Source: an uncultured Pseudomonadales bacterium (GTDB lineage: Bacteria > Patescibacteriota > Microgenomatia > UBA1400 > PJMF01). From it: a stretch of 64,000 nt of DNA. Both the position numbers and the translations under genes were made by a program. The stretch is taken from assembly GCA_964650185.1 (NCBI GenBank), contig CAZYRN010000001.1, positions 46,284 to 110,283 of the forward strand, given 5' to 3'. Positions within the stretch are counted from its first letter, which is position 1; each line of letters starts with the position of its first letter. Under the pieces are notes generated by a model. That model was not told the origin of the DNA, made no database searches, and saw nothing but the letters and a program-made list of their open reading frames with translations. This document shows positions 42,895 through 62,404 of the stretch, in pieces.

Positions 42895-42907
42895 CCCAGC
42901 TGCATAA

Positions 42908-42936: not shown

Positions 42937-42973
42937 TCAGTACTCAATCTAGTTTTGACATGCTAAAGATTTT

Positions 42974-43046
42974 GGCCCCATCGTCTAGTGGCCTAGGACA
43001 TCGCCCTCTCACGGCGAAAACGCGGGTTCGATTCCCGCTGGGGTCA
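42974..43046 (+). tRNA. tRNA-Glu (anticodon CUC), 3' CCA not encoded
   Basis: Cloverleaf drawn by hand. Acceptor GGCCCCA/TGGGGTC with G2·U71. D-arm GUCUAGUGGCCUAGGAC. Anticodon stem UCGCC/GGCGA with loop CU-CUC-AC. T-arm GCGGG-UUCGAUU-CCCGC. Discriminator A is followed by CAT. Near-identical in layout to E. coli tRNA-Glu. Confidence 0.9.
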
Positions 43047-43217
43047 CATACACGCATATACACGAACATACATTGATATACGTTTACATAGCTTCCTTCA
43101 TAATTTCGTCAATTTTTTTGAATAAATTTTTTATTAGTGACTAAACAGGCGTTGAGGAGGATGGAGACAGGAGTTTATTTCAATAAAGCTTTTAATGAAT
43201 ACAGATGAGTATTATTT

Positions 43218-44258
43218 ATGTATAATACCAGCTTCTTTATGTCACACGAATATACATCAGAGTATGCTAGAAAATATATAGAATCGACTCTAGCATCTCC
43301 ATACACAATCTACAAAAATAAAGTCATTGCAGATTTATGCACTGGCTTTCAATCTGTTTGGGATTTGGGTGGCAATGTTTCTGGACTAATTAGACAACCA
43401 GGTTCTTTGAGATTTCAATTAGAAAAAAAAGGCGTTGATTACAGATCTATTGATTTAGTCCCAGCCTACTTTAGCACTGTATTTGCTAAAAGTCTTGGAG
43501 TTGATGGATCTTCAATTTTCCCTAGCTTATTGGGAGTAGTTGGTGATATCCAGGAACTTCCTTTAGCATCTGATTCATTAGAAGTAGTTATTTCTGCAGA
43601 TGTTATTGAGCACATTCCTAATCCAAGTCAAGCAATATTAGAAATAAAAAGAGTGCTAAAACCAGGGGGAAAGGCAATCATTGTTGTTCCATCTTTATAT
43701 AAACTAGATGCTATTCACGCTGATCATGTTGAGGAAAAAAGATATTCGTCTCACGAAAATAAGCTGACCTTTGCAGAATGGCAAAAACTAATTGAAGGTA
43801 GTGGCCTAAGTATTGATATTGAACAATCAAGACCACTAGGTATCCTCTCTGGCTTATTATATGTAGCTTGGCTAGATGAGAGATTTGTTCCTCAAAAAGC
43901 TTCACAACGAGAAAAAGAGACATTCTCAAAAGAAGCAATTCTCTTCAAAAAAGTGAAAAATGTAGTATCCGCTCTAGATGCCGAATTTGACGAACTCCTG
44001 AGAGCAGATCAAGATCTCCCGCAAACACTGATTGATTTACTCAAATCTGGTGATATTTATGGACTATTAGACAAAATAAAAGAAATTGTCACTGCCAGAA
44101 TGGGAGAAACAGATCTAACAAACCTTGAAACTTTACTTGAAATTATAGCTGAAAATCATCTAAATCAGGAATCTCTTGTAAAAATACAAAATCTAGCAAA
44201 CAATCAAGGAAATCTTTTTCTTGGAAACTCTGCTCTATTTGTAGCTACAAATGAATAA
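43218..44258 (+). CDS. Class I SAM-dependent methyltransferase (Methyltransf_11-like) with C-terminal extension; AT-rich
   Basis: VIADLCTGFQSVWDLGGNVSG (motif I-like) and LEVVISADVIEHIPNPSQAILEIKRVLKPGGKAII (motifs II/III). 346 aa. Confidence 0.55.
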   Translation: MYNTSFFMSHEYTSEYARKYIESTLASPYTIYKNKVIADLCTGFQSVWDLGGNVSGLIRQPGSLRFQLEKKGVDYRSIDLVPAYFSTVFAKSLGVDGSSIFPSLLGVVGDIQELPLASDSLEVVISADVIEHIPNPSQAILEIKRVLKPGGKAIIVVPSLYKLDAIHADHVEEKRYSSHENKLTFAEWQKLIEGSGLSIDIEQSRPLGILSGLLYVAWLDERFVPQKASQREKETFSKEAILFKKVKNVVSALDAEFDELLRADQDLPQTLIDLLKSGDIYGLLDKIKEIVTARMGETDLTNLETLLEIIAENHLNQESLVKIQNLANNQGNLFLGNSALFVATNE

Positions 44259-44359
44259 AATCACTTTTGTCTTTTTAAATTTGGTAGCATCACATAACCT
44301 TAGTTCAATACCCTATGGGGATGTAATAAAGCCGAGAGCCTTTACATCTGCGTAAAAAA

Positions 44360-44376
44360 GGTCAAATAGTTTGACC
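44360..44376 (-). terminator. Rho-independent-type hairpin (GGTCAAA-tag-TTTGACC) followed by T6 on the minus strand
   Basis: 7-bp perfect stem, 3-nt loop, with a run of six A immediately 5' on the plus strand (T-tract on minus). Abuts the stop of the minus-strand small ORF 44362..44595. Confidence 0.4.
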
Positions 44377-44749
44377 AGATCCGAGATGATTTGGTTCGGT
44401 TTCCAAAGGTGTGGGGTCACCATTTTCGCATTTTTCATCAACAAGTGACTGGATTAGCTCGAAGGATGGGGATAAATTTGCTGGTTCGGATTTTTTGTCT
44501 TCTGATACAAGCAAGGTGTTGAGAAACGCTGTTGAATATCGAGAAACACTTTTTGAAGTAGCGCTTGCTGTTTTGGAAAATCTAATTTCTCCCACCTTCT
44601 CCAGCTAAAACATCCACAGTGAAATTCGCACTGTCCTCTTTGGGTCTAAAATAGCCGCCGCCATCTTCATTTAAGTCTATCACATGGATATCTACTAACT
44701 GGGCCTGGTCAGTGCTTTTTTTATCATCCTGAGCAATAATATATGGCTA

Positions 44750-45451
44750 ATGCTTAAATTTAATTATAACCTATTCCAACATTCTCTCGTTTCCAAAAAA
44801 CAATTGATCGTTGTATTACTAGCGGGGGACCTAATAATTTTTGTTTTTCATCTCCTCTTTAATCAGTATCAGTTTTTTCACTTTGATTTTGAGCAGAATT
44901 TACCCACTTATTATCAGTCATTTAAACTAATCTTTTTTGGCATATTCTTCTTGGCCATAAGTCTAAAATCTTTTCATAATAATATTACTAAATTTTTTAT
45001 GCTTCCTTTGGCTATGTTTTTATTTCTGCTTGGTCTGGATGAGTTGCTGCAAATTCACGAAAATATTTATCGCATCTTTACGTTCGTCGACTGGTTTCAT
45101 CCCAGTAAAATCGTGGCAGCATCCATGAAAATGGGCTATCGATCTTCGTTGTGGATCCTATATTACTTACCGCTACTCTTACTATTCGTATTCTGGAGCG
45201 GATACTGGATGAACTATTTTCAATCTCGTTTAAATAACAATTTTAGTTTATTTATGCTTAGTTTTATTTCATTTTTCACAATTATTATCACTGAAATCTT
45301 GAGTTCTACAGGAACGTATAGCGACGCTGTATATTTTTTGCTCGTGACTATAGAGGAAACAGCTGAAATGCTATTAGCTACATTTCTGATTCTAGTTGGC
45401 GTGCAGCTGCTCAAGTTCACCCAAGACTCACTTCATGAGACTAATAATTAG
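44750..45451 (+). CDS. Hypothetical polytopic membrane protein (AT-rich accessory gene)
   Basis: 233 aa with about 6 TM helices. No known motif. Confidence 0.4.
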   Translation: MLKFNYNLFQHSLVSKKQLIVVLLAGDLIIFVFHLLFNQYQFFHFDFEQNLPTYYQSFKLIFFGIFFLAISLKSFHNNITKFFMLPLAMFLFLLGLDELLQIHENIYRIFTFVDWFHPSKIVAASMKMGYRSSLWILYYLPLLLLFVFWSGYWMNYFQSRLNNNFSLFMLSFISFFTIIITEILSSTGTYSDAVYFLLVTIEETAEMLLATFLILVGVQLLKFTQDSLHETNN

Positions 45452-45880
45452 CCTAAACTATTTTAAGGTAGACTAATTCTGCTAGCAAAGATAAACCAAA
45501 TAATTAAGCCAATCAGATGAAAAATGGAAAAATTGGTCAAAAGTGACTTAATACCTTTTTTAGAGGGAAGATTTGGGGTTGAATTTGGGGGTGTGTGCAT
45601 TTGTAAATATTCTAGTAATAAAAAGCGGTGGTGTTAAAGAGCTGGAGGGAAAGCCATATCTGCACTATTTTGTTACAGTTATTGACATTTAATGGGCTTA
45701 TAATATTTAATTATTAGATAATTCTTATAAAATTTAAAACTAATCTGTTTTGATTAATAATCTTTGAGGAGCATTCGCATGTCAAATATCACAGCTAAAG
45801 AAATCCATCACCAAGAAACAGATAAACCTATTAAAAATTCCGAGAAAAGATCACGGCGTTAATACTCCAGAATAAACGCG

Positions 45881-46861
45881 GTGATTTATGGCGCCTTAAT
45901 TGCTGTAACTGCAGCTGCCGAATTTAATAATGCAATTCCTGCTCGTGCAGAGGATGCAACTCCAACTTCTACACCCACTCCTGGTGAGTCTGATCCAAGC
46001 TTAGTGGTTACTGAAGCTGCCAGAAATGCTGCAGAGACAGAGGTAGCTTATGAGAAGCTTCCGGAAACTACACCTTATAGGTGGGTTTCAGATGAAGTTA
46101 AAAATGAGCCCGGTCATGAAAGATTTTCTGGAGAACTTTATCAACTGCCAGATGGTAAACCACTTAAACCTGGGGATGTAATAAGAATTTCTGTATATGT
46201 TCCTAGTGATAGTCTTTTTGGTTTTGGAACTTTACAGAATGATGAGAATATATCTGCTTGGATTTCAGAGCAGAATATGCTCCCAGGCGAGACTCCGTCA
46301 CCGCTCTTAGCCGGAGCAACTCATGGCAGGTACCAGGAACTGCTCGTAGTTGTTGGTCCTGACGGAAAAATTACCTTTAATGTACAAACAGAAGCTGATG
46401 AAAGTCCTGGCTCATGTTTTGTGATTGTAAATGTATTAGGAATCGTTGATCTGAATACACCCGTTCCTCCTGTAGAGTCCACAGCTACGGCTGTGTTTGC
46501 TACAGCTACTCTTGCCCAAAATCCAGAACAAGACGAGCTCACTCAACCACCCAGCGATCAAGATGAACCAAGAAATCCCAACCCAACCCCAACTCCTCAG
46601 CCCGCAGATACTCCGGAGGCACCCCCTGAACCAGGTGCTGAAAGTGACATTGAGCTTGATGAAATTCCTTACCGAGGTGAAATGGATGAAGCAGGACTTA
46701 CAACTCTTCGTGAAAATATAACATCTGAGGAGTGGATTAGTATCACTGATGACAATTTAATTATTCTATGGTTGGGAACGATCGGTGCAGCAATTGCCCT
46801 GGCTTATTGGTCTTGGAAAGACGATGAGACCGGTAATGAAGACAGCCAGTCTGATAACTAA
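45881..46861 (+). CDS. Secreted acidic Pro/Thr-rich protein with C-terminal TM anchor. An in-frame upstream segment (45779-45859, with SD+ATG) is separated from it by TAA at 45860-45862
   Basis: The ORF begins mid signal-peptide (IYGALIAVTAAAEF..ARA/ED). PTSTPTPG and PNPTPTPQPADTPEAPPEPG low-complexity linkers. C-terminal TM ILWLGTIGAAIALAYW followed by an acidic tail. Confidence 0.4.
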   Translation: MIYGALIAVTAAAEFNNAIPARAEDATPTSTPTPGESDPSLVVTEAARNAAETEVAYEKLPETTPYRWVSDEVKNEPGHERFSGELYQLPDGKPLKPGDVIRISVYVPSDSLFGFGTLQNDENISAWISEQNMLPGETPSPLLAGATHGRYQELLVVVGPDGKITFNVQTEADESPGSCFVIVNVLGIVDLNTPVPPVESTATAVFATATLAQNPEQDELTQPPSDQDEPRNPNPTPTPQPADTPEAPPEPGAESDIELDEIPYRGEMDEAGLTTLRENITSEEWISITDDNLIILWLGTIGAAIALAYWSWKDDETGNEDSQSDN

Positions 46862-49538: not shown

Positions 49539-50741
49539 ATGAAAAAGTATGTAACTATTGCCACTTTGCTTTCAGCACTAGTGACTCTGCCAATTGGTTG
49601 GTTGTTAGGCGCTAGATTCGGCTGGCCACTGCTTGAACAAAGTCAGCTGCTGTCACCGCTGCTGGATCCGGTCGAACCGGCGATTAAAGAGTATCCATTA
49701 GCTAAATTTAGTATTGGCGCTTTAGCCCAGTACCCCTACTCCTCGAGTAATATTGAAATTGAAGAAATCTTGGTTGAAGAGGATGACTACACTAGCTATT
49801 TATTTTCTTATCAAACGATGGGGAAAAAAATGACTGGTCAGGTTAACGTTCCGAGCCAGCCAGCTCCAGCGAGTGGTTTTCCTACAATCTTGATGTTGCG
49901 CGGCTGGGCTCCCCAAGCCAGCTATCGCACCGGAGTTGGCACCAGCCCAGCCGCCGCCGTGTTAGCACGAGCAGGTTTCGTCACCATCGCTCCTGATTTT
50001 TTCGGCTACGGCAGCAGTGATCCTGAATTTGACGATGCTTGGCTAGCTAGATTTCAAAAACCAATTCAGGTGATTGAACTGCTTAAATCAGTTGAGGCTC
50101 AACCCCAGCTCGCTTTGCCCGCCACAACTTCTACTACAGTCTCCAGTGCCACAGTCTCAGACACCTCCACACTTTCATCAATTAAACTTAACACAAACAG
50201 CCTCGGCTTTTGGGCACACAGTAATGGCGGCCAAATTGCCCTAACTGTCTTAGAAGTACTGCAGCGGCCTATTCCCACTACCCTGTGGGCACCTGTCACT
50301 GCTCCTTTTCCCTACTCGATTCTCTACTTTTCTGATGAGGAACCTGACGAGGGTAAATCGATGAGAAAAAATCTTTCTCTTTTCGAGACAGATTATGATG
50401 TCTTTGATTTTAGCTTAACTCAGCATCTCAACTTACTAATGGGACCGATTCAGCTTCATCAAGGTACAGCTGATGAGGCCGTGCCGGTGGTGTGGAGTAA
50501 TGAGTTTGTCGATAAGATTAAAGCGGAAAATATTAGACGCAAGAGTTTGCAAGAGGCAGCTACAGCAGATCAGCTTAATTCGACCCAAGCCGCTGAGAAT
50601 GAAGAGCTCAATCCTTTACTTCCTGAAATTGACTTGACCTATCACGTCTATCCAGGTTCAGACCACAATCTCCGACCAGCCTGGGATACGGTCGTGCAAA
50701 GAGACCTGCAATTCTTCCAAGAACAGTTTGAGTTAGATTAA
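49539..50741 (+). CDS. Alpha/beta-hydrolase fold protein (S9/dienelactone-hydrolase-like), membrane anchored
   Basis: N-terminal TM. The nucleophile elbow GFWAHSNGGQ is followed by D and H in the C-terminal third (GTADEAVP ... GSDHNL). A Ser/Thr-rich insert lies between. Confidence 0.55.
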   Translation: MKKYVTIATLLSALVTLPIGWLLGARFGWPLLEQSQLLSPLLDPVEPAIKEYPLAKFSIGALAQYPYSSSNIEIEEILVEEDDYTSYLFSYQTMGKKMTGQVNVPSQPAPASGFPTILMLRGWAPQASYRTGVGTSPAAAVLARAGFVTIAPDFFGYGSSDPEFDDAWLARFQKPIQVIELLKSVEAQPQLALPATTSTTVSSATVSDTSTLSSIKLNTNSLGFWAHSNGGQIALTVLEVLQRPIPTTLWAPVTAPFPYSILYFSDEEPDEGKSMRKNLSLFETDYDVFDFSLTQHLNLLMGPIQLHQGTADEAVPVVWSNEFVDKIKAENIRRKSLQEAATADQLNSTQAAENEELNPLLPEIDLTYHVYPGSDHNLRPAWDTVVQRDLQFFQEQFELD

Positions 50742-50755
50742 CCGATAATTAAAAT

Positions 50756-51886
50756 TTACTCTTCAATGTCAGCTTCCACTAACGGCAGTTGATCAGGATC
50801 TGATAGCTCCTGACCATGAAAACTTTCTACTTCCTCAACTCGGCGATCCATCTGCCTAAATCTAGTACTAGTTAAATCATCATAAGCACGCTTCAGCGTA
50901 TCTATTGATCGGCCATATTTTTCAAATTGATCTTTAAATTTCACCCACTCTTGAGTGAAAGCATTGACTTGCACCACTACTTCTCGCAGTTTATCTTCTA
51001 GCATGAAGTTGCGGTAGCTTTCCCGAACTGTACCAGCCACTATCAGGAAAGTGAACGGCGACACAATCATGACTCTTCTTTCCAGCGCCTCATCTACTAT
51101 TTCCGGCATATGCTGGTTTATAAATGAAAAGACCATCTCATTTGGTACAAACATGATGGCATAATCAAGTGTATTTTTATCTGGCCGAATATACTCAGCC
51201 ACTTTAGTAACTTTGATTTTCAGATCTTTTCTAAACTGTTTAACATGAATCTCTTTACCTGCCTTGGTGTCTGCTTCTGTCATCTTTTGAATTTCTGCAT
51301 AAGGAAACTTAACGTCAACCGGCACCTGGCGTTTATTTGGCAGAAGCAAGGTAATATCTGGTTTGAGATTAGTGTTGCCAATAAAACTCTGCCGCAGATA
51401 GTGAGTGCCCTCAACTAAGCCATGTGAGCTTAACAAGTCTTCAATGATCCGCTCACCCCAGGCACCCCGCGTTTGATTGTTCGAGAGCACTTTCGCCAAT
51501 TGAGTCGTCGAAGTCTCCAGCTCCTTAGTCAACTTCCGATGCTCCTCCAATTGACTAGTCAACTCCCCAAAGGACTTATTTCTATTTAGCTCTATTTTAT
51601 GAATCTCTTCTTGGCGCTGCTTCATATCGTCTTGCAGCTGTTTAACCAGATTTTCAATGGTACGCTGTTTGTTTTCTAAATCTACCTTGATTGCTTCTTT
51701 CTCACTATCTAAAACTTGCTTGCTTTGCTCAACTATTTTATTAGTGCTTAAACTAAAAACTTTATGCACCATATTCTCAACTTGCTCATCATTTCCGCCC
51801 GCAGTCAGTTTCCGCTGTAGAAAAATAAATAAGCTGACAAACCCCAGCACAATCACGCCCAAAATTAAAATAAGATCAATTGACAT
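50756..51886 (-). CDS. rmuC: DNA recombination protein RmuC
   Basis: N-terminal TM plus coiled coil. C-terminal PDITLLLPNKRQVPVDVKFPYAEIQ...DYAIMFVPNEMVFSFI matches the RmuC nuclease-like domain. Start taken at ATG 51886 (the track's first codon is TTG at 51937). Confidence 0.7.
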   Translation of the reverse strand: MSIDLILILGVIVLGFVSLFIFLQRKLTAGGNDEQVENMVHKVFSLSTNKIVEQSKQVLDSEKEAIKVDLENKQRTIENLVKQLQDDMKQRQEEIHKIELNRNKSFGELTSQLEEHRKLTKELETSTTQLAKVLSNNQTRGAWGERIIEDLLSSHGLVEGTHYLRQSFIGNTNLKPDITLLLPNKRQVPVDVKFPYAEIQKMTEADTKAGKEIHVKQFRKDLKIKVTKVAEYIRPDKNTLDYAIMFVPNEMVFSFINQHMPEIVDEALERRVMIVSPFTFLIVAGTVRESYRNFMLEDKLREVVVQVNAFTQEWVKFKDQFEKYGRSIDTLKRAYDDLTSTRFRQMDRRVEEVESFHGQELSDPDQLPLVEADIEE

Positions 51887-51931
51887 AACTAGAGTATACT
51901 GTAGATAGCAAATTGATTCATCTCTCGTTGT

Positions 51932-52414
51932 ATGCAAAAGGCAAGATCCAGGCTAAAAAAATCACCAGCAGTTAGGAGTGAGTCAAATTCTCCTGAATTT
52001 CTCTCAAGAAAAGCTGTTAAACCACCCAAAATCAGGCGATCTCCAGCCGTCCCTAGTCCAACTATTCAGCGTTACCTCCGTCATCTGCCAATTTTATTTT
52101 TTTCGCTATTTTTTTACGGATCACTGTTTTTTTTAACCAAAAATTACTATCCCGACGCCATCAGGCATTTTATTTTGCCAAATACTTACCTGCCATTTCA
52201 GTTACTGCTGTTCCTAGCCAACTGGAGTTTATTTAGTTTCATTTTCTTACACACAAGACGAGGTTTTTTGATTAGTCTAATTTTACAGATGCTGATCTTT
52301 TTGAAATTACAACAAATCAGCGTCACACCAGTCTTAGTGCTGAGCATAGTTGGCGGAATAACAATCTTAGAAGTTCTGCTCTCACTCTCGAAACGTCTGG
52401 TGCACTCGAAATAA
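51932..52414 (+). CDS. Hypothetical membrane protein with basic N-terminal tail
   Basis: 160 aa. RK/P-rich N-terminus, then 4 TM helices. Divergent from rmuC. Confidence 0.3.
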   Translation: MQKARSRLKKSPAVRSESNSPEFLSRKAVKPPKIRRSPAVPSPTIQRYLRHLPILFFSLFFYGSLFFLTKNYYPDAIRHFILPNTYLPFQLLLFLANWSLFSFIFLHTRRGFLISLILQMLIFLKLQQISVTPVLVLSIVGGITILEVLLSLSKRLVHSK

Positions 52415-52447
52415 TTTTTGTTATAATTGGAGATATCTTGATATCTT

Positions 52448-52843
52448 TTGTTCCCCTATTTCATGCAAACATCTTCTAAATCACTTACCGAAAATCAACA
52501 GCAAGATCTTGTGAAACGGTTTTTGATTTTATTGAGTGATATTCGCCGCCCTGAGGAGGCTGCCGCTTTTTTTTATACTTTTTTAACTAATACCGAACAA
52601 CAGGTTTTTGTCAAAAGACTAGCTATTGTCTGGATGCTCAGTGAAGGCAAATCGTATGAAGAAATTCGCCAAGCTCTCCATGTCTCCAGCGCCACAATTT
52701 CTTCGGTCGCTCAGCAAAAAGATGATCAAGGCATGCAGTTGTTAATTAAAAAGATGAGGATTGATGACTGGGCTGATAAATGGGCTGAGAAAATTAGTCA
52801 GGTATTACCATTTACTAAGAAAGTTGGCGAAAGTGGCAGCTAA
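52448..52843 (+). CDS. TrpR-like DNA-binding protein (YerC/YecD family)
   Basis: VFVKRLAIVWMLSEGKSYEEIRQALHVSSATISSVAQ matches the HTH of the Trp-repressor-related YerC/YecD family. 131 aa. Confidence 0.55.
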   Translation: MFPYFMQTSSKSLTENQQQDLVKRFLILLSDIRRPEEAAAFFYTFLTNTEQQVFVKRLAIVWMLSEGKSYEEIRQALHVSSATISSVAQQKDDQGMQLLIKKMRIDDWADKWAEKISQVLPFTKKVGESGS

Positions 52844-53237
52844 GAATGAGATTAGTTTCGGTTTAACCTATGTTCCTGAGAGGTTTTCAGGTGAAAATAA
52901 AGCTTTAGGCAGTCTTGTAGCTGCCTTAATTGTGATTAATAAACAGCTTGTAGATATAGTAGACCAAGTCTACCTAGATAGATTTCCCCAGCAGGATCAA
53001 ACTTCTCAAAAGCTTTTTTCAGATTTACAGGCAAGAGAAACGATCATATTCAATCTGGGACAACTTTCACCCGAAGAAATAGCAAGAGTACTAGATGTCA
53101 TTGAAAAACAATTGACTTTTTATAATTTTGCCGTTGAAATATTAACTCTCGGTGCAAATAGAGATCTAGATTGGCCAGAGCCAGTTGAACTTGAATCAAC
53201 TCAATTCGTGCAGGTAAATGTTGGCTTTGCTGATTAG
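52826..53237 (+). CDS. Hypothetical protein (start uncertain; overlaps the TrpR-like gene in +1 frame)
   Basis: The open frame begins inside the upstream gene. The first plausible start is GTG at about 52826. No recognisable motif. Confidence 0.25.
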
Positions 53238-53248
53238 AACATCAAGCT

Positions 53249-56200
53249 TTAACCCACCTCTTCAATGAAAGCATAGCTATAAGCCTTGACCAAGATAAGC
53301 AAGGCGATAGCAGCTGGAATATACCAGTCAGCCACTAGTCTTAACATCGTACCAGCTTGATACTGGCTGGGGTTAATCAACAACACAGCCAGCGCAATTA
53401 CAACTAGGGTCACAATGATGGATAACAGATGCTTGAGCAAGCCTGGCTCACGTTTTAAGACATTCTCAATGAGGAGTAACAACAGAAGCTGAATTGCTAA
53501 AAGTACCCAAGGCAACCGCTGCTGCAGCCAATTATTCAGCTCTTGAGTAGTTCCTAATACCTCACCATTGTCTTCTCCATCAGCTGCAGCCATAACCGCT
53601 TCATCTGTCGAGACACCCTGCACTTCTCCAGCGGGAGCAAAGTCAGTCGCAGGCGCTCCCGGCTCAACACCAGCTGCTCCTGCAATTTGCCCTGTATTGA
53701 CTTCATTGGAGTTGTCACTCTGATTATGAGCCGCATCCATGGCTCGAACGACAAAGTAATAGCTGCCAGCACCTAAACCTTGCACTTCATACTCAGTCAC
53801 TTGACCAACATTAGCTCCGTAAATATGCTCACCAGAGGTGGTGCCATAAAATATCAGGTAGTTAGCGGCGTCCTCAATCTCAGTCCAGCCAAGGAACGCA
53901 GAGCCTTCACCTGTGGAAATTAAAGTCACTGTTGGCGCAGCTGGAGCTGATCGATCAACAATTAGCTCCTTACTGGCAGATTTGGAATTGCCGACTGCAT
54001 CAAAAGCAGTTACCTTGACCTGCCAAGTGCCCTCAGTCAATTGGTCAATCTCAGTTGAGAAAGTTGTTGAGTTGACGGTCTTACTGTGACGAGTATCACT
54101 GTCATTGAGCCTCCACTCAATCTGATACTTATCAACATTGACATTGTCATGAGCCTTACCCCAACTCACCTCAGCAGTAGTGCCACTGGTAGGATTGGGA
54201 TTAACTTTAATACTTTGCGGACCTTCATCAAGGCCTGTCTCATCCCAACGAACACTCTTAATACCCTCTTCAGTAGCAGAGAAGTTGTTGGCTTTGTCAA
54301 AAGCACTGTAGTAGAGCACATGACTGCCCTCACTTGGGACTTGAGTAGAGACTGTTTTTTCAGCCACAGATTCCCAACTGCCGTCGTCCCATTTGTATTG
54401 GAGCGAATCAAAGTTTTCATCGGTGACTGTTAAAGTAATAGTAGGCCGAGTTACATACCAGCTGTTTTTGCCATCAGGAGCAGCGGGATTTATGGTCAAC
54501 TCCACTTCAGGAATGGTTTTATCAACAATAATTGTCAGTTGATGAGTCGACTCAACATTGCCCGCCACATCCTCAGCATGAGAACGAATGACGTAGGTAA
54601 CGCCATCCTTGACATGTTCTGCGGGCAAACTGTACTGCCAGTCAACATTTTTAGCTGGAGCATCAGTCGGATTAAGAGGAAATTTTACCTCATCACCTGA
54701 ACCTGCTATCCAAGCAGAGCCATCCCAGTAGTAATTATCACTGCCCGCAGTTCTTTGAATTGAAAGTTGAACATTCGCTACACCCTCATTGTCGGTAGCG
54801 GTACCAGTCAGCTCACCGTTCCAAAGATTATTAAAGGCTGTGATTTCAGATCCTTCAGATTCTGAAACAATCTCAGATGAGCCTTCAGGAAGATTGATCA
54901 AGCTGGAGGGGTGGGCGTTGTCGATGATAACTTTGACAGTTTTTACTGAAACTGCACTCTTCTTATTATTAGCTTTGTCTCTAGCTTCTAATCTGATAGT
55001 GTACTCACCGTCTGGATCATTGTTGGTTAGCCAAGTGTAATTAATTTCTGCATCTGGACCATTATGATAAATAGTGCCTGGACCAGCCACTACTTTTCCT
55101 TGATCATTCAAAATTACTAAATAGTAGCGCCATAAATTGGAATCACTAACATCAGCAGTAATAAATACCTCACCTGCTACAAAACCACCTTCCGCTGGAG
55201 AAGTAATACTTACTTCAGGAGCTAAAGTATCAATAATAACCTCCTTCTCAAGGATATTTGATTTATTGCCGGCGTTGTCGATGGCTTGAACTCGAATCAA
55301 ATACTCTCCATCTGCCAACTCTGCAGGTGAGAATGAGAAAGCTCCTTCATTATAGTTAGCTGGAGTCCAATCTCTGAGGATGATGCCTGATTGATCTTTA
55401 ATTTGGTAATTAACTTGGTCAATGCCAGCCAAATAAATATCGTTAGCTTTTCCTGTCAGGTTGGGGGTGGAATCATTGGTAATCAGATCTTGATCATTAT
55501 CCCAAGAGATGACCGGTGCATCATTATCAATAGTTAATTCATAACTTTCACTCCAGGAGCTCCAGTTGCCAGCAGCATCTCTCGCTCTGACTCGCCACCA
55601 GAAGTGAATGCTGGCTTGCCTATCAACTCCCTTTTCCACACCTTTTTGAAATCTTTCATGTATTATTCGAGAACAAATTTCACCTTCATCTCCAGGGTCA
55701 ACTGCACAACTTTGATACTGATATTCAACTGCATCATCTTCCTCAGTCCATTCCTGAATTATTAAGGGAGTTTTATTATGACTTAGCACTTTTTGGTCTC
55801 CTGGGCTGATTAGCTCAGGTGCATCTGGCGCTTGGGTATCAACAGTGACATTCCAAATCTCACTCCATGCACTTTTATTACCGACTTCGTCAACAGATCT
55901 AACCTGCCAATACCAAGTACCATCTGGTGTTCCATTGGCATTTTGTTTGGGGGAAGTTAAACCAGACTTAGTATATTGAACATGGGTTAACACTCCATCT
56001 ACCTCAGCTGGATTTTTGGTTGAATGATAATCATAGGTTATCCCTGTTTCACCATTACTAACATCATTCCATTCTAAGTTAAATATGTTTGTGTTTAGTA
56101 ATTCTTCATGATGAGTGCCGCCAGTTGGGACATTAGGAGCTTTGTTGTCAATTAGGTACTTTTTTGGTTTGGATGATCTATTGTTATTCGCTAAATCTCT

Positions 56201-58027
56201 AAACCTAAATTTAAGATTGTAGGTACCCAAATATCCTTCTCTAACAAAATCTCTAGTATTAACAACTGCCTGATAACTATTGTTTGCTGTATTCACACAC
56301 TTATAACTCCCTGACTCTTGCACAGTATATGGAGATTCGAAATCATTATTATCAACAAACTTTACATAACAGTATCCCTCATCAAAGCCAGTGCCTGCTT
56401 CAATTACATCAAATGTAACAATAACCTCACCAGCAATTTTTCCGCTTACTTCAGGATTCACCTTGATGTTGGTAATCACAGGAGGTGTACGATCGATAGT
56501 GAAATAGTGATCGCCACCATTGGCTTTGTTTTCTGATAAATCCCATCCTCTTATACCTAAAACATATTCTCCATCTCCTAAGTTACTTATGTCAAACCAA
56601 TGTGAAACTTCTTCACTAAGTTCATCATAATTACCATCCGCAGCAGGTATAGTGGTCCAGTTGTAAAATACTTTAGATTTATCTTTATTCCAAAGTGCGA
56701 ATTTCACTGATTCAATTCTTGATTGATTATCAGTAATTTGACCATCGATGTTAAATCCATTACTTTTAGAATTTATAATATCTTTACTAATTCGAAAATT
56801 ATTCATTTGGGGACTAGTTTTATCAAGAGAAAATTTGGTCCAGTCAAAAAGATAGTCACTTTCAGGACTGGCACTCATTCTAACCTCAACATAATCAGTT
56901 ACAGTGAAAGTTTTCTCTGTGACTCCGGTTGAGTTTAATGAAACTGTTTTGGGTGCTCCTCCATCAATTCTGGCTTGATACTTAATTGAGCCAAATGTTT
57001 GTTTATCAAAACTTAGGGTAATTTCTCCATTTGGTGATGATTTAATGAAGTTTACGTGGGGCCATTTATTGGCACGATTGACATCATTTGTGCTATATTT
57101 TTTTACATCAAATCTAGTCCAATCAAATCTTTCATCCGACTCTGCTCCGTAAACCATCCGGATTTCAATATATTCATTTGCATGGATGGTCTTACTAACA
57201 TTACTATTGTTTACGCACACGCTTGGGTATTCACCATCATCAATGAATATATTCTCATTTACTTGTTTAACTTTCTGACTGGTATCTCCGTCAATCCTAT
57301 ATTCAAAACAACTAGCAAAAGATCTTGTACTTACAAATTCAAAAGTTATTCTGCCCGGTAACTTTGCCTGCTTAACATTTACATGTGCCCAACCCTTATC
57401 TCTATTGACATCATTTGTGCTTGGTGTGGCATTAACACTCATTAGTGAAAAGGCTGATTCAAACGTACTCATCATCCTTCCCAGCACCGAAGGACTATCA
57501 ATCTCGGCTATCTCATTACTTAAAATCTCAGCTTCAGCATCACCTTCCACCCACCCCAACTCATCCTCACTCAACCCCATCTCATCGCTATCATGCTTTT
57601 CCACTAACCCAACTTCTTCCTCAATCAACTCAAATTTCAGAGCGGTAATTTTGTCTCCATCTCGCACCTTCAACACCCCTCGGCTTGCTTCATCCGCTGT
57701 GCAAATTCCATCAGAACATGTTCCAAAATAAATTGAGTGATCCTCAGCGGTCAACTTACCCTCAGCAGCCTCAACTTGGCCATCGATCTCATCATAATAG
57801 TAAATTCCAAACGGAAGTTCGGTCTCATCACCAACCTCAACTCTTAACTCATTCTCAGCTACCAAATACTGCAACTCAAATTGAGTCTTAACTTCAAAAT
57901 CAGCTTCCTGAGCGAATACAGGCTGTGTAAGAAAAACTGGCGCAAGGGGAGACAGAATTAATTGCAGAGAAAGCAACATGGCAGCGACCTTATTAAAGGT
58001 TTTTAGCATTGTGCGCCATTTAGACAT
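53249..58027 (-). CDS. Giant cell-surface protein (1592 aa) with signal peptide, repeated beta-sandwich/Ig-like modules, fibronectin type III domains and C-terminal TM anchors
   Basis: Signal peptide MLLSLQLILSPLAPVFLTQPVFAQEA. Repeated NDVNR(D/A)xxW(A/P)HVN modules. FN3-like segments (TPSAPTVTLISTGEGSAFLGWTEIEDAANY…YYFVVRAMDAAHNQS). C-terminus with 2-3 hydrophobic helices. Confidence 0.75.
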   Translation of the reverse strand: MSKWRTMLKTFNKVAAMLLSLQLILSPLAPVFLTQPVFAQEADFEVKTQFELQYLVAENELRVEVGDETELPFGIYYYDEIDGQVEAAEGKLTAEDHSIYFGTCSDGICTADEASRGVLKVRDGDKITALKFELIEEEVGLVEKHDSDEMGLSEDELGWVEGDAEAEILSNEIAEIDSPSVLGRMMSTFESAFSLMSVNATPSTNDVNRDKGWAHVNVKQAKLPGRITFEFVSTRSFASCFEYRIDGDTSQKVKQVNENIFIDDGEYPSVCVNNSNVSKTIHANEYIEIRMVYGAESDERFDWTRFDVKKYSTNDVNRANKWPHVNFIKSSPNGEITLSFDKQTFGSIKYQARIDGGAPKTVSLNSTGVTEKTFTVTDYVEVRMSASPESDYLFDWTKFSLDKTSPQMNNFRISKDIINSKSNGFNIDGQITDNQSRIESVKFALWNKDKSKVFYNWTTIPAADGNYDELSEEVSHWFDISNLGDGEYVLGIRGWDLSENKANGGDHYFTIDRTPPVITNIKVNPEVSGKIAGEVIVTFDVIEAGTGFDEGYCYVKFVDNNDFESPYTVQESGSYKCVNTANNSYQAVVNTRDFVREGYLGTYNLKFRFRDLANNNRSSKPKKYLIDNKAPNVPTGGTHHEELLNTNIFNLEWNDVSNGETGITYDYHSTKNPAEVDGVLTHVQYTKSGLTSPKQNANGTPDGTWYWQVRSVDEVGNKSAWSEIWNVTVDTQAPDAPELISPGDQKVLSHNKTPLIIQEWTEEDDAVEYQYQSCAVDPGDEGEICSRIIHERFQKGVEKGVDRQASIHFWWRVRARDAAGNWSSWSESYELTIDNDAPVISWDNDQDLITNDSTPNLTGKANDIYLAGIDQVNYQIKDQSGIILRDWTPANYNEGAFSFSPAELADGEYLIRVQAIDNAGNKSNILEKEVIIDTLAPEVSITSPAEGGFVAGEVFITADVSDSNLWRYYLVILNDQGKVVAGPGTIYHNGPDAEINYTWLTNNDPDGEYTIRLEARDKANNKKSAVSVKTVKVIIDNAHPSSLINLPEGSSEIVSESEGSEITAFNNLWNGELTGTATDNEGVANVQLSIQRTAGSDNYYWDGSAWIAGSGDEVKFPLNPTDAPAKNVDWQYSLPAEHVKDGVTYVIRSHAEDVAGNVESTHQLTIIVDKTIPEVELTINPAAPDGKNSWYVTRPTITLTVTDENFDSLQYKWDDGSWESVAEKTVSTQVPSEGSHVLYYSAFDKANNFSATEEGIKSVRWDETGLDEGPQSIKVNPNPTSGTTAEVSWGKAHDNVNVDKYQIEWRLNDSDTRHSKTVNSTTFSTEIDQLTEGTWQVKVTAFDAVGNSKSASKELIVDRSAPAAPTVTLISTGEGSAFLGWTEIEDAANYLIFYGTTSGEHIYGANVGQVTEYEVQGLGAGSYYFVVRAMDAAHNQSDNSNEVNTGQIAGAAGVEPGAPATDFAPAGEVQGVSTDEAVMAAADGEDNGEVLGTTQELNNWLQQRLPWVLLAIQLLLLLLIENVLKREPGLLKHLLSIIVTLVVIALAVLLINPSQYQAGTMLRLVADWYIPAAIALLILVKAYSYAFIEEVG

Positions 58028-58057
58028 ATGACCTTTCTCTTAAATTTTCTTGCACGT

Positions 58058-58086
58058 ATATTAACACACTAAATCATACTGTGCAA
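58058..58086 (-). promoter_or_regulatory. Candidate promoter for the giant surface-protein gene (TTGCAC-N17-TAATAT)
   Basis: Hexamers with 17-nt spacing about 30 nt upstream of a GAAAGG RBS and the ATG at 58027. Confidence 0.4.
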
Positions 58087-58101
58087 TGAAAATGCCGCCT
58101 G

Positions 58102-58130
58102 TTGGTGATTTGCCTGAGGTTATATATAAT
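58102..58130 (+). promoter_or_regulatory. Candidate promoter for metG (TTGGTG-N17-TATAAT)
   Basis: Consensus -10 with 17-nt spacing. Divergent from the promoter above. Confidence 0.4.
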
Positions 58131-58159
58131 AGGTCTTTGTGACGAAGATACCACATAAT

Positions 58160-59578
58160 ATGTCGCCTCATAATTTTTATCTCACCACCACCCTACCCTA
58201 CGTCAACGCTGCGCCCCATATCGGTTTTGCTTTAGAAATTGTGGCGGCTGACGTGATTGCCCGCTACCAGCGTTCTTTAGGTAAAGAGGTCATCTTTAAC
58301 ACTGGCACTGATGAGCATGGTCAGAAAATTTATGAAAAAGCTCTTGAGGCTGATCTAGCTCCTCAAGATTACGTTGATGAGTATGCGGCTCACTTTAGTC
58401 AATTAAAGGATCAGTTAAATCTTAGTTATTCTCACTTTATCCGCACTACTGACGCTCACCATGTCACCGCTGCTCAGCATTTTTGGCAGCTCTGTGATGA
58501 AAAAGGCTATATTTATCTTGATAGTTATCAAGTTAAGTACTGTGTTGGCTGTGAGTTGGCTAAAACTGAATCTGAGCTTGTCGACGGCAAATGTCCGCTC
58601 CACCCTCTTCAGGAGCTAGAACTCAGAGAAGAAGAAAATTACTTTTTCAAATTTTCCGCTTTTCAAGAACAGTTGTTAGCTTTGTATGAGTCTCAGCCTC
58701 ACTTTGTAAAACCTGAAGGAAAATTTAAGGAGATTAAAAGTTTTGTCGCTCAAGGTTTGCAGGATTTTAGTATTTCTCGACTTAAAGAAAAGATGCCGTG
58801 GGGCATCACTGTACCTGGCGATGAAAATCACGTGATGTATGTGTGGTTTGACGCATTAGTTAATTACATCTCGACTTTGGGCTGGCCAGATAACGAGCAG
58901 CAATTTCAGCAGTTTTGGCCGGGAGTGCAATTAGCCGGTAAGGATAATTTACGGCAGCAGTCAGCCATGTGGCAAGCGATGCTTATGGCCGCTGGTCTAC
59001 CAAATTCGCAGCAAATTTTAATTAACGGTTTTATTGGGGTGGATGGTCAAAAGATGAGTAAATCATTAAACAATGTCATCTCTCCTCAAGAAATGGTCGA
59101 TAGGTATGGTCAAGATGCGACTCGTTACTTACTAATTAATTTAGGCGCATTTGGCGATGATATGGATGTAACTTGGGAAAAACTTGATACTACTTATACA
59201 GCAGATTTAGCTAATGGCATTGGTAATCTTTGTTCAAGAGTGGCTAAAATGGCGGAACAAGATGGGTTTTCAGTTGAAGCAAGTGGTCAAACTGGGAGTG
59301 TTGAATATCACCAACTGATGACAAATTATGATTTAACTCCAGCACTTCAATTAACTAAAGAGCTGGTAACTGCTACCGATCAATACCTAAGTGAAACAAC
59401 CCCTTGGCAGAAAGAGCCGGCAGAGCGTGAGCAAATTTTACGACAGGCTATTACCCAGATTTTGCAAATTGCCGAGCAACTGACACCAGTCATGCCTAAC
59501 ACAGCTGCTGAGATTAAAGCTCATTTCAGTGGAACAGTGAGCAGTTTTCAGCCACTTTTTCCTAGACTACCGGCATAA
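58160..59578 (+). CDS. metG: Methionyl-tRNA synthetase (short form, no C-terminal tRNA-binding extension)
   Basis: PHIGFA (HIGH-class motif) near the N-terminus, a CxxC zinc-knuckle region and KMSKS (KMSKSLNN). Start taken at ATG 58160 (the track starts at the GTG at 58139). Confidence 0.9.
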   Translation: MSPHNFYLTTTLPYVNAAPHIGFALEIVAADVIARYQRSLGKEVIFNTGTDEHGQKIYEKALEADLAPQDYVDEYAAHFSQLKDQLNLSYSHFIRTTDAHHVTAAQHFWQLCDEKGYIYLDSYQVKYCVGCELAKTESELVDGKCPLHPLQELELREEENYFFKFSAFQEQLLALYESQPHFVKPEGKFKEIKSFVAQGLQDFSISRLKEKMPWGITVPGDENHVMYVWFDALVNYISTLGWPDNEQQFQQFWPGVQLAGKDNLRQQSAMWQAMLMAAGLPNSQQILINGFIGVDGQKMSKSLNNVISPQEMVDRYGQDATRYLLINLGAFGDDMDVTWEKLDTTYTADLANGIGNLCSRVAKMAEQDGFSVEASGQTGSVEYHQLMTNYDLTPALQLTKELVTATDQYLSETTPWQKEPAEREQILRQAITQILQIAEQLTPVMPNTAAEIKAHFSGTVSSFQPLFPRLPA

Positions 59579-59584
59579 CTAACC

Positions 59585-60382
59585 ATGAAAATTTTTGACT
59601 CTCACTGTCACTATAACTTGAATCCTTTATACACCAACTGGCAGGATCACTGGCAGAAAGCACAAGAACATGGGGTAATCGGCGCCAATGTGGTAGGCAC
59701 AAATATCGAAACAAGCCGACGCGCTGTGGAAATTGCTCAGCAAGATGAAAGATTGTCAGCGGCAATTGGCGTCCACCCCAATGAATATGTCACAGTTTCC
59801 CCTGCAGATCTGCCGACAATCATCACTCAACACACGACTGCTTTAGCGATGATGATTGGCCAAGACAAAACTGATCAAATTGCGGCCATTGGTGAAACCG
59901 GCTTAGATTACTTCCGCCTGACTGCTGAAAATTATCAAACTGCTCGCAGTAATCAACAGGCAGCTTTTCGCGCTCACATCGAGTTAGCCAATGAGTTTGA
60001 GAAAGAGCTGATTGTTCATGTCCGAGATAAAGGCGGTAAAAAAGCCAAAAATAATCAAGCTTATTGGGATACTCTAGAGATAATTGAGAAGTTTTATCAG
60101 CACAAAAAACGATTTATTCTTCACTGCATTTCCGGACCTGCTGAATATCTGCAACGTGCGCTGGAAATGGGAGCTTTTATTGGCGTCGCGGCCAACGTTA
60201 CTTACACCAATGCAGATGAGTTGAGAGAGCTGGTCAAACTAGTGCCTCAGGATCGACTACTGCTTGAGACAGATGCACCTTATTTGCCGCCACAGGAATT
60301 TCGCGGGCAGGTGTGTGAGCCGTGGATGATTGAGAAGATAGCGGCCTTTTTTTCTAATTTACACCAAAACTATTTCAACTAA
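59585..60382 (+). CDS. tatD: TatD-family metal-dependent hydrolase/DNase
   Basis: MKIFDSHCHYNL (HxH), a conserved GETGLD motif and a C-terminal ETDAPYL. 265 aa. Confidence 0.9.
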   Translation: MKIFDSHCHYNLNPLYTNWQDHWQKAQEHGVIGANVVGTNIETSRRAVEIAQQDERLSAAIGVHPNEYVTVSPADLPTIITQHTTALAMMIGQDKTDQIAAIGETGLDYFRLTAENYQTARSNQQAAFRAHIELANEFEKELIVHVRDKGGKKAKNNQAYWDTLEIIEKFYQHKKRFILHCISGPAEYLQRALEMGAFIGVAANVTYTNADELRELVKLVPQDRLLLETDAPYLPPQEFRGQVCEPWMIEKIAAFFSNLHQNYFN

Positions 60383-60804
60383 CGATCGAGATTAAAATTT
60401 ATAGTAAACAAATAGTCATTTTCCTGGTTTTGTACACTAACTAGCTTAAGTTCTGTCACCAACCCTCCTAAAAAATTAGCAACCCAAATTGCAGAACTCT
60501 GATTAAACTCATTTCCGTTAAATGGCAATAATTGTGTTGTTCCAAAATCATTTTTATGATCCAAGTACCACTTAATAATTTCCCGTAACAGTTTGGTAAC
60601 TTCCTCTTTATTAGCTGGACTTTCTAGCTTTGAAGTTGCCGCTGAGACCAAGCTATCTGGATCATTTTCCATCATTTGAATCAAGCTCACCAGTTGTTCT
60701 GGTGACTGGTGTCTTGGATGTGCAAGTACTTCATTTCCTCTTTGGGTAGGATCATAACCCTCAGGCTGTTCTGGTAAATCAATATAACCTTCATTCATAA
60801 TCAA
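60379..60804 (-). CDS. Hypothetical cytoplasmic protein
   Basis: 141 aa. Convergent with tatD, with a 4-nt overlap. No motif recognised. Confidence 0.35.
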   Translation of the reverse strand: MIMNEGYIDLPEQPEGYDPTQRGNEVLAHPRHQSPEQLVSLIQMMENDPDSLVSAATSKLESPANKEEVTKLLREIIKWYLDHKNDFGTTQLLPFNGNEFNQSSAIWVANFLGGLVTELKLVSVQNQENDYLFTINFNLDR

Positions 60805-60907
60805 AATTCCTTATAACTATTTATTAAGATATTTAACAAATTCTAGATCTAAATTCACTTTACCGCCTTTCTCAATTCTTTTAAATGTAGGATAATACCT
60901 CACACTC

Positions 60908-62404
60908 ATGATTAAGCAATACTTTCGCCGCCATCCGATCCGTACCCAGCGGGCACTAGAAATCCTGCCTGGCTTCGTCTCTTGGTCACTCATCTTATTT
61001 CCATTCTGGGGCTCTTTACTTTTCCCGGTCGCCGTGGCTTACTACGTCATTGCATTCGCCGTTTATTGGCTGTTTCGCTCTTTATCGATGGCAACCCTGT
61101 CTATCTTGGCTCACTTTAAAATCAAAGCCACTAAAGAATTTGATTGGGTAAATGACTTAAAACAAAGCTTTCCACAGCGTTGGGACCAAATCCACCACAT
61201 TATTATTATCCCAACCTATCGAGAGCCTGAATACATTTTGGCTAGAACCATCGAAGCCCTGGGTCAGCAGACTTATCCACTTAAAAACATTCATCTAATG
61301 CTGTCATTTGAAGATAGAGAAGGTGAACCTGCTCGAGAAAAAGCTGCCAATCTCCAAAAACAGTTTAAAAATACCTTTGGTGATCTCTGGGTGACTTATC
61401 ATCCGGATATTGAAGGAGAGGTAAAGGGCAAATCTTCCAACACTTCTTGGGGGGCAAAAGAAGCTAAACGGCTGCTGGTCGATCAAGCAGGTATTCAGAT
61501 TGAGAATATTACTATTACCAGCGAAGACGCTGATGCGCAATTCCACCCTCAATATTTCGCCAATCTGACTTTTGAGTTTCTTAAAGTTCATAAGCCTTTT
61601 AACAAAATTTGGCAGGGAAATATTGTCTTTTATAACAATATTTGGACTGTGCCGGCTCCAGTTAGAGTATTAGCCTCGATGTTCTCCGTCATTCAGATGT
61701 ATGTCTTGATGCGTCAAGATCGGCTAATTAATTTTTCAACCTACTCAACTTCCTTAAAACACGTCGATGAAATAGGTTACTGGGATACTGATGTCATTCC
61801 GGAAGACTATCGGCTATTTTTCAAATCTTACTTTGCTAAAAAAGGCGACTTCGAGGTCCAGCCTATTTTTCTGCCCATCTATTCTGATGCCGCTGAGTCT
61901 GATGGCACATGGAATACCTTTAAAAATCAGTATGAACAGTTGAAACGCTGGGCTTGGGGAACTAGTGATGACGCCTACATCATCCGCCAGTATGTCTTAA
62001 CTGAGGGTGTACCTTTTTGGGATAAAACCATGCGGGTACTGAAAGTCATTGAGGATCATTTCCTCTGGCCAGTCAACTGGTTCGCCATTACCATTTCGGC
62101 GATGCTGCCGCCGCTGCTTAATGAAGAGTTTAACCGAACCATGATTGGAAAAACTTTGCCTCAGGTCACTTCCTTCTTACTGACACTCTCACTGGTATCG
62201 ATGATTGTCATTTTTGTGATTGATGCGCTTAATCGACCACCGCGACCAAATAAAAATAACATTCTCTCCTACATTTTTCAGCCTTTAGAATTTTTGCTGT
62301 TACCCATTGTCGGCTTTTTCTTCTCGGCTCTACCAGGAATTGATGCTCATACCCGTTTAATGCTGGGTAAGTATATTGAGTACAAGGTGACAGAAAAGGT
62401 CTAG
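60908..62404 (+). CDS. Processive family-2 glycosyltransferase (cellulose/chitin-synthase-like), membrane embedded
   Basis: N-terminal 2 TM. IIIPTYREPEYILARTIEAL (GT2-A core), SEDADAQ (DxD-like) and QLKRWAWG (the QxxRW motif of processive beta-glycosyl synthases). C-terminal 4 TM. Confidence 0.65.
   Translation: MIKQYFRRHPIRTQRALEILPGFVSWSLILFPFWGSLLFPVAVAYYVIAFAVYWLFRSLSMATLSILAHFKIKATKEFDWVNDLKQSFPQRWDQIHHIIIIPTYREPEYILARTIEALGQQTYPLKNIHLMLSFEDREGEPAREKAANLQKQFKNTFGDLWVTYHPDIEGEVKGKSSNTSWGAKEAKRLLVDQAGIQIENITITSEDADAQFHPQYFANLTFEFLKVHKPFNKIWQGNIVFYNNIWTVPAPVRVLASMFSVIQMYVLMRQDRLINFSTYSTSLKHVDEIGYWDTDVIPEDYRLFFKSYFAKKGDFEVQPIFLPIYSDAAESDGTWNTFKNQYEQLKRWAWGTSDDAYIIRQYVLTEGVPFWDKTMRVLKVIEDHFLWPVNWFAITISAMLPPLLNEEFNRTMIGKTLPQVTSFLLTLSLVSMIVIFVIDALNRPPRPNKNNILSYIFQPLEFLLLPIVGFFFSALPGIDAHTRLMLGKYIEYKVTEKV

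Follow-up and report, generated by a model that had tools for sequence, protein, structure and literature searches.

How ultrasmall, probably episymbiotic bacteria attach to their partners is, to our knowledge, largely unknown beyond type IV pili. A locus that bears on this question lies in a stretch of 64,000 nucleotides (nt), referred to as the window, from an uncultured bacterium placed by GTDB in the Patescibacteriota (contig CAZYRN010000001.1 of assembly GCA_964650185.1). The longest of all open reading frames (ORFs) in the window, at 53249..58027 on the minus strand, encodes 1592 amino acids (aa), as already stated in a preliminary description made from the sequence alone, which took the product for a surface protein and possible attachment factor. 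What kind of protein is it, and what would it do on the cell surface? We found that the ORF is real and encodes a protein with the features of a membrane-anchored, presumably rod-like surface protein, a kind that is common. Its NDVNR module belongs to a widespread domain family that is unannotated in every library searched, and the gene is a strain-level mosaic, of which two alleles were sampled. The large cross-phylum family and the mosaic had both been missed in the preliminary description.

Integrity of the gene

The exact 1592-aa protein is encoded in publicly available sequences, namely by an NCBI contig 159,547 nt long and by Logan contigs. Logan contig SRR7082982_186, the product of an independent assembler, is 100% identical to window positions 50249-61027 over 10,779 nt, and this identical 10.8-kb sequence is reported in 2 samples. 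A separate 914-aa fragment corresponds to aa 679-1592 of the protein, with 913 of the 914 residues equal. A related strain carries the same gene in a syntenic position adjoining metG and tatD, and a repeat check of the gene found no internal DNA repeats able to mislead an assembler. Given the base-for-base Logan copy and the matching fragment, a chimeric assembly, which the preliminary description had named as the finding that would overturn it, is unlikely. Hence, the ORF is not a chimera peculiar to one assembler.

Architecture of the protein

The features of the gene and its product are as follows, all on the minus strand.

53249..58027, minus: whole gene, ATG start, 1592 aa; exact protein on NCBI and Logan contigs
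5-6 nt 5' of the ATG, minus: probable ribosome-binding site GAAAGG, from the sequence
57911..58027, minus: predicted Sec-type signal peptide, aa 1-39, with predicted cleavage between VFA and QE (aa 37-41); hydropathy and sequence
57542..57910, minus: orphan N-terminal domain at the presumed distal tip, aa 40-162, with one Cys pair (C104/C109) and an acidic tail
57443..57541, minus: acidic linker and segment LGRMMSTFESAFSLMSVNA, aa 163-195, aligned with family members
57092..57442, minus: module 1, aa 196-312, the canonical 'TPSTND...GWAHV...CFEYR.DGDTSQ...DERFDWTRFDV' domain; missing from the related strain's allele
56813..57091, minus: module 2, aa 313-405, a divergent copy without the Cys pair and the long loop
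56486..56812, minus: beta-sandwich domain D3, aa 406-514, weak PKD-like match; end of variable block V1 (aa ~155-515)
56132..56485, minus: domain D4, aa 515-632, weak DUF7035 match; conserved between alleles
55529..56131, minus: domains D5 and D6, aa 633-833, FN3/immunoglobulin (Ig)-like, with the motif W.W.VR..D..GN.S.WS; variable blocks V2 (aa ~625-704) and V3 (aa ~735-810) make up their N-terminal parts
55223..55528, minus: domain D7, aa 834-935, Big_13 (E 8e-12)
54917..55222, minus: domain D8, aa 936-1037, Big_7 (E 5.5e-07); indel between alleles
54242..54916, minus: domains D9 (weak Big_13) and D10 (OmpL47-type barrel domain, NF047446, E 1.3e-21)
53687..54241, minus: two FN3 domains, aa 1263-1357 (E 5e-08) and aa 1358-1447 (E 0.006), from the segment-wise Pfam scan
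53519..53686, minus: linker rich in Ala, Gly, Glu and Pro, aa 1448-1503, carrying the motifs EVQGVST and EVLGTTQ
53264..53509, minus: three C-terminal transmembrane (TM) helices, aa ~1507-1526, 1533-1557 and 1566-1588, from hydropathy

The predicted N-terminal Sec signal was recovered, with a basic n-region MSKWRTMLKTFNK followed by a hydrophobic core at aa 13-35. The beta-sandwich segments and the FN3 domain of the preliminary description were also borne out. In the whole protein, Pfam detects Big_13 in five stretches (E 9e-31), Big_3_3, Big_7, Big_3_2, an fn3 domain at aa 1270-1355 (E 3.7e-10) and a second, weak fn3 at ~aa 1366-1443, and NCBIfam adds the OmpL47-type barrel domain at ~aa 1131-1253. 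The segment-wise scans resolve ten beta-sandwich domains, D3-D12, between aa 406 and 1447. Neither library has a match at E<=1 within aa 1-405 or a catalytic domain anywhere in the protein. The orphan tip domain has no Pfam match, and a homology search returned no relatives of it beyond the orthologue; its single-sequence AlphaFold2 (AF2) model is unreliable, with a predicted local distance difference test (pLDDT) score of 47.5.

The stretch described earlier as Glu/Ala-rich is the linker at aa 1448-1503, in which Ala accounts for 11, Gly for 8 and Glu for 6 of 56 residues. Behind it are three hydrophobic segments, in keeping with the two or three C-terminal helices foreseen in place of an LPXTG signal. 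No LPXTG motif lies near the C-terminus; the pattern [LN]P.[TS][GAN] is matched only once, by NPTSG within an FN3 domain (aa 1278). Within the TM region, the short basic loop KREPGLLKH is predicted to be cytoplasmic, and the tail after the three helices is the acidic EEVG, not a basic one. These helices are weakly conserved in the relatives P0002 and P0003.

The linker shares a short motif with other module-bearing proteins. The pattern [VIL]LG.{1,3}[ST], often in tandem, stands just before the C-terminal TM helix in 20 of 39 such proteins, as against 2.4% of background 72-aa windows; here it takes the form EVLGTTQ, with EVQGVST as a variant. It also occurs in the C-terminal linkers of P0002, P0009, P0012, P0156, P0173, P0213 and others, and the TM helix that follows usually opens Trp-rich (AWYWWLLILA). 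The motif may serve in sorting, glycosylation or processing.

The NDVNR module and its family

The NDVNR motif occurs at aa 205 and aa 314. The preliminary description had counted at least two modules of ca. 100 residues, and the module profile, A1, finds exactly two: aa 196-311 (E 4e-61; profile positions 1-116) and aa 312-404 (E 1.5e-26; positions 8-116). Applied to the six-frame translation of the window, the profile detects no copy outside this gene. The two modules are 36% identical to each other. Module 1 shares 50-68% identity with family members and has retained every invariant residue including the Cys pair, and module 2 is missing both Cys and a 19-residue loop (columns 64-82 of alignment A1). 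The structure prediction that had been suggested for the repeated module gave a confident beta sandwich: the AF2 model, with a pLDDT of 93.6, has seven strands and an N-terminal helix. A Foldseek search with this model against PDB and viral structures gave no match at E<=0.001, and the best hit of the module profile among PDB sequences has an E value of 0.28.

We then inspected the relatives of the module, an unnamed family of ca. 110-aa domains that we define by profile A1 and refer to as the 'TPSTND' family. Most matches of the first homology search share only aa ~181-311 with our protein, at 50-68% identity, and are otherwise unrelated. In these proteins the module comes right after the signal peptide, as in VFA directly followed by VVDSITPSTNDINRSKGWAHVD, and the C-terminal end is either a single TM helix with a basic tail or a peptidoglycan-binding domain. 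In our protein, by contrast, the module starts at aa 196, behind the extra tip domain, and is duplicated. The segment LGRMMSTFESAFSLMSVNA aligns with the signal-peptide end of the other members and is possibly a relic. The profile search returned at least 500 proteins, none of which has a precomputed Pfam domain; most are of 165-190 aa and consist of signal peptide, module and short tail. Their source names include Patescibacteria, Bathyarchaeia, Thermoproteota, Caldilineaceae, Actinomycetota and Dehalococcoidia, among others. Among 1.84 billion cluster representatives (50% identity), HMMER detects 409 matches at E<=1e-3, of which 138 are at E<=1e-30. A scan of GTDB species genomes identified 42 module loci. 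Many of these are in Chloroflexia and several in Patescibacteria lineages; others are in Bathyarchaeia, Actinomycetes, Acidobacteria and Gemmatimonadota, and two are in Woesearchaeota, one of them on a complete 1.84-Mb chromosome. Several further loci come from metagenome-assembled genomes labelled Gammaproteobacteria/Pseudomonadales, labels that we judge doubtful. Across Patescibacteria, Chloroflexota, Actinomycetota and archaea, the module is ca. 60% identical.

The module begins no later than aa 60 in 250 of the 275 family proteins and further along in the remaining 25. Most of the listed members of at least 600 aa have a C-terminal TM helix. Where mid-sized members have further Pfam domains, these are Ig domains of the stalk type and anchors (LPXTG, PG_binding_1, Por_Secre_tail, cohesin/dockerin), with no enzyme domain among them. 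The family alignment contains 25 invariant columns, including the Cys45-Cys76 pair and, among others, S8, N10, N13, W18, C45, E47, R49, D51, G52, N62, N64, Y72, R95, E101, R105 and W108; D53 and Q56 are conserved in at least 90% of the sequences. The invariant residues of polar or aromatic character are located in the N-terminal arm (S8, N10 and N13) and within loops (D51-G52, N62, N64, E101 and R105). Neither Pfam nor NCBIfam annotates the module in our protein or in the family members, and a literature search for its motif strings found nothing.

The genes that encode standalone modules have no conserved neighbour in the 42 loci and no upstream riboswitch in Rfam. At the three loci inspected (L047, L049 and L051), the standalone gene is preceded by a long spacer of ~240-270 nt, again with no Rfam match. 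A tail of ca. 30 aa with two Cys, DCK.GGW...GF.NQGQC..FV.TGKDSR, is a frequent ending of standalone module proteins (55 of the 275 family proteins, among them P0020, P0038, P0121, P0128 and P0134) and has no match in Pfam or NCBIfam. A second tail type of the standalone proteins reads TKA..L..SGV.GKG...APGLQK. P0140 (464 aa), P0141, P0142 and P0143 contain two or three canonical modules in tandem, P0140 being composed of three modules and a FIMAH domain; tandem duplication of the module thus recurs in the family.

Two mosaic alleles

The best full-length relative of the protein is P0001 (1398 aa), encoded at the same place, adjoining metG and tatD, on an ENA contig from the related strain. The DNA of this contig and that of the window are 98.7% identical between the window end and 57538 and 98.9% identical between 54931 and 53166; over the stretch in between, 57538 to 54931, the similarity collapses. 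We compared the two genes by nucleotide identity in a codon-aware alignment, in 30-codon steps. The conserved blocks (aa 61-150, 534-623, 705-734, 824-929 and 1034-1592) are mostly 96-100% identical, with the lowest 30-codon windows at 92-93%, and the tip domain is 97-100% conserved. The variable blocks (aa ~155-515, 625-704 and 735-810), which are located in the predicted exposed outer half of the protein, reach only 45-55%. P0001 is without module 1 and also without one whole Ig domain, aa 930-1032; the latter is an exact in-frame indel of 103 aa, whose junction GTTATYATYGAY (VIID) is repeated at both domain borders. In both alleles the GC content is lower in the variable blocks (0.30-0.38) than in the conserved ones (0.42-0.51). 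The P0001-type allele is also found on a third contig, which comes from a JGI metagenome.

Both alleles are intact and in frame, and they break at domain junctions. Specifically, the breakpoints fall at conserved inter-domain junctions and, within D5 and D6, at the conserved W.W.VR..D..GN.S.WS strands, from which the homology for recombination could come. Near-identity beside near-randomness indicates recombination with divergent donors rather than point mutation in place. An origin from a diversity-generating retroelement (DGR) or silent cassettes was considered and, from the content of the window, rejected. The 64-kb window contains no second copy of any part of the gene, neither template-like repeats nor paralogues, and therefore a DGR is not supported; in addition, the variable blocks differ throughout and not specifically at adenines.

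Comparison with known surface proteins

Big_13, Big_3_2, Big_7 and fn3 are typical stalk families of proteins resembling fibrillar adhesins (FA-like proteins; PMC8286594). Their layout in monoderms (Firmicutes) is an N-terminal head and a C-terminal anchor, with TM helices treated as a fallback anchor (PMC8286594). Our protein resembles them in four of five descriptive properties: a heuristically extracellular location, a tandem Ig-type stalk, a terminal candidate binding region far from the anchor, and a surface anchor. Its extracellular location is predicted from the n/h/c-type signal with cleavage between VFA and QE and from at least 12 beta-sandwich domains of extracellular type. It lacks the known adhesive domain that the operational definition needs. 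Its head is composed of an orphan domain and an unannotated module, and its anchor is three TM helices, not LPXTG, SLH or another listed anchor.

Sortase-anchored adhesins of the MSCRAMM type also have a signal peptide, an N-terminal head, a repeat stalk and a C-terminal hydrophobic anchor. Different from these, our protein has no LPXTG and no Big_8, SdrG_C_C or Collagen_bind supradomain, and has three TM helices where an MSCRAMM has one helix and a basic tail; the combination of motif, single TM helix and basic tail that marks a sortase substrate is thus not found. The likeness to Leptospira OmpL47 is confined to one or two stalk domains. The region at aa ~1131-1253 matches the NF047446 domain with 76.8 bits against a cut-off of 40, but the full-length equivalog NF047441 gives 66.7 against a cut-off of 250. 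The relatives of the head itself are the standalone 165-190-aa proteins and Ig-stalk heads of the 'TPSTND' family (P0004-P0278).

Pneumococcal mosaic surface proteins such as PspA and PspC show sharp switches between near-identical and divergent blocks in ca. 99%-identical strains, together with whole-domain indels, and the gene described here is like them in both respects. Different from them, its organism is uncultured and only two alleles have been sampled.

Surroundings of the gene

The genes and the intergenic region that flank the big gene are as follows.

58028..58159, no strand: divergent intergenic region common to the big gene and metG; 100% identical in three strains
58160..59578, plus: metG (methionyl-tRNA synthetase, MetRS), 472 aa from ATG 58160, as called on related contigs
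52448-52843, plus: TrpR-family gene, convergent with the big gene; Pfam Trp_repressor
~52833-53237, plus: ORF of 134-158 aa (134 aa according to gene finders), no family match

The likely start of metG is ATG 58160 (MSPHNFY...) and not the mechanically called GTG 58139, and the intergenic spacer is therefore 132 nt. GTG 58139 is only 8 nt after the TATAAT, and ATG 58160 fits a 5' untranslated region of ~25 nt. The preliminary description had placed two divergent sigma70-like promoters in this spacer. The hexamers and their 17-nt spacing are indeed present, as TTGCAC (58086-58081), N17 and TAATAT (58063-58058) on the minus strand toward the big gene and as TTGGTG (58102-58107), N17 and TATAAT (58125-58130) on the plus strand toward metG. 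Each -35 element, however, matches the consensus at only 3 of 6 positions, for which reason a consensus scan lists neither pair, and the pair toward the big gene is weak overall (7 of 12). Sites as good as this pair occur ca. once per 850 nt of the window and sites as good as the metG-side pair ca. once per 6.1 kb; in the region, promoter-like sites are about as frequent as chance predicts (15, against 14.0 +/- 3.7 expected). Conservation in the three strains is uninformative here because the region is 100% identical in all of them.

A TrpR-like YerC regulator had been given as the next gene downstream. This placement is incorrect: the gene lies on the opposite strand, and the 134-aa ORF intervenes, overlapping the end of the TrpR-family gene by 11 nt and ending 11 nt from the stop of the big gene. 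Membership in the TrpR family holds (Pfam Trp_repressor, 45.8 bits against a cut-off of 27), but the YerC identity is not supported, as the TIGR02531 YerC/YecD model scores 33.3 bits against a cut-off of 42.2. No terminator-like hairpin was found between the converging 134-aa ORF and the big gene.

The window as a whole is chromosomal housekeeping DNA with genes for GluRS, AspRS, DnaX, RecJ, MetRS, TatD and RmuC, and Rfam detects a single tRNA in it, at 42974-43046. Beside this tRNA, the stretch 42001-46000 has a lowered GC content (0.35-0.38) and a reversal in the sign of the GC skew, and may have been integrated or be of foreign origin. On the minus strand at 3821-13783, five ORFs of 518-561 aa stand in tandem within 10 kb; the first is separated from the second by two shorter ORFs, of 348 and 259 aa. 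One of the five matches PMT_2 (GT39/ArnT-like, E 5e-9) and the other four have no Pfam match; the array probably consists of paralogous membrane glycosyltransferases.

Patescibacteria are among the named relatives of both the big protein and the module, and together with the gene content of the window these names point to a probable Patescibacteria-type bacterium. P0002, a 33%-identical relative (L044 6001-15427, GCA_964603945.1), is followed by an epimerase gene and then by a giant ORF of 1421 aa with a faint fn3_6 match. As called, P0002 has no signal peptide and is preceded by two small ORFs on the same strand, and its N-terminus may therefore be miscalled. Its organism is found in the same run (SRR7082982) as that of the window.

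Proposed function and alternatives

The gene probably encodes a fibrillar, adhesin-like, C-terminally anchored surface protein, whose distal head would bind an external ligand and whose outer half would be diversified by recombination. After Sec export and cleavage of the signal peptide, the protein would be held in the cytoplasmic membrane by its three C-terminal helices. The flexible Ala/Gly/Glu linker and ca. ten tandem Ig/FN3-type beta-sandwich domains would form the stalk, for which we infer a rod shape and, at ~4 nm per domain, a length of tens of nanometres. The stalk would project the N-terminal head outward, composed of the orphan tip domain and one or two ~110-aa modules. The head would most likely bind a partner or host cell surface, a glycan or a matrix. 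The orphan tip domain, being conserved between the alleles, may be the constant part of this head. Homologous recombination within the species would swap divergent cassettes and add or remove whole domains in the outer half.

Several points weigh against this proposal. The signal peptide and the TM topology come from hydropathy heuristics only, and no recognised adhesive domain is detected by Pfam or NCBIfam; what stands of the earlier 'surface protein' is the architecture of signal, stalk and anchor. The absence of the canonical module from the sister allele indicates that it is accessory and dispensable for the core function. Its ca. 60% identity over free-living and symbiotic Bacteria and Archaea speaks against a host-specific receptor and in favour of a ligand of a generic kind, or of a function in structure or self-association. 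Finally, neither the neighbours of the big gene nor those of module genes elsewhere give a functional clue.

The protein could instead be an envelope structural component, either of an S-layer or its anchoring or of a protective coat, with Ig domains that build or space a lattice and with variation that reflects escape from phages or predators for which the protein is the receptor. A C-terminal membrane anchor and many Ig-like domains are likewise found in archaeal and some monoderm S-layer proteins. The position of the variable blocks in the exposed outer half would fit such a role, and so would the nearby glycosyltransferase genes (a GT2-like ORF at 60908-62404 and the PMT_2-like array). However, Pfam detects no SLH or other known S-layer domain, and the plan of head, long stalk and anchor, with the module distal across the family, is more typical of fibrillar adhesins; we regard an envelope structural role as unlikely. 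Somewhat less probable still is that the module binds a generic non-host ligand, for example in a Ca2+-dependent manner a common polysaccharide, a mineral, a metal or itself, and serves in attachment to biofilm, matrix or particles or in cell-cell aggregation, and not in the recognition of a specific partner. The similar conservation of the module in Patescibacteria, Chloroflexia, Actinomycetes, Bathyarchaeia and Woesearchaeota is consistent with this, as are the prevalence of free-standing secreted members of 165-190 aa and the many invariant Asp, Asn and Glu residues in loops (DGDTSQ, N.N, DG.YP, E.DER), but the sister allele does without the module.

An assembly artefact, in which reads of co-occurring strains or of paralogous Ig-repeat genes were joined to give the ORF or the mosaic pattern, is very improbable. 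The sequence is metagenome-derived, and repetitive domains together with at least two alleles in public data do favour chimeras. Against this stand the identical 10.8-kb sequence from a second assembler in 2 samples, the 914-aa fragment, the lack of internal DNA repeats, and the intactness of both alleles with breaks at domain junctions. The fibrillar, adhesin-like protein with a putative ligand-binding head is the best-supported reading. A broader and tentative extension of it concerns the module itself, which might be an undescribed extracellular head domain common to Bacteria and Archaea, with a conserved and possibly ion-dependent ligand site in the N-terminal arm and loops, and might be passed on as a cassette from one surface protein or lineage to another. 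Strains of this species, by exchanging cassettes of head and stalk, might then set partner or substrate specificity or phage susceptibility.

Significance

As a giant Ig-repeat surface protein, the product of this gene is of an ordinary kind; to this it adds a new, unannotated head-domain family, an unusual polytopic anchor and clear strain-level mosaicism. More generally, the analysis yields a domain family, of at least 409 clusters and outside all libraries searched, which is unusually conserved across phyla and domains of life and is placed at the predicted exposed tip of many surface proteins. Its small size and confidently predicted fold make the module easy to express and test. The two alleles, with the canonical module present in one and missing in the other, provide a natural experiment, and the big protein is a concrete candidate for experiments on how such bacteria attach to their partners.

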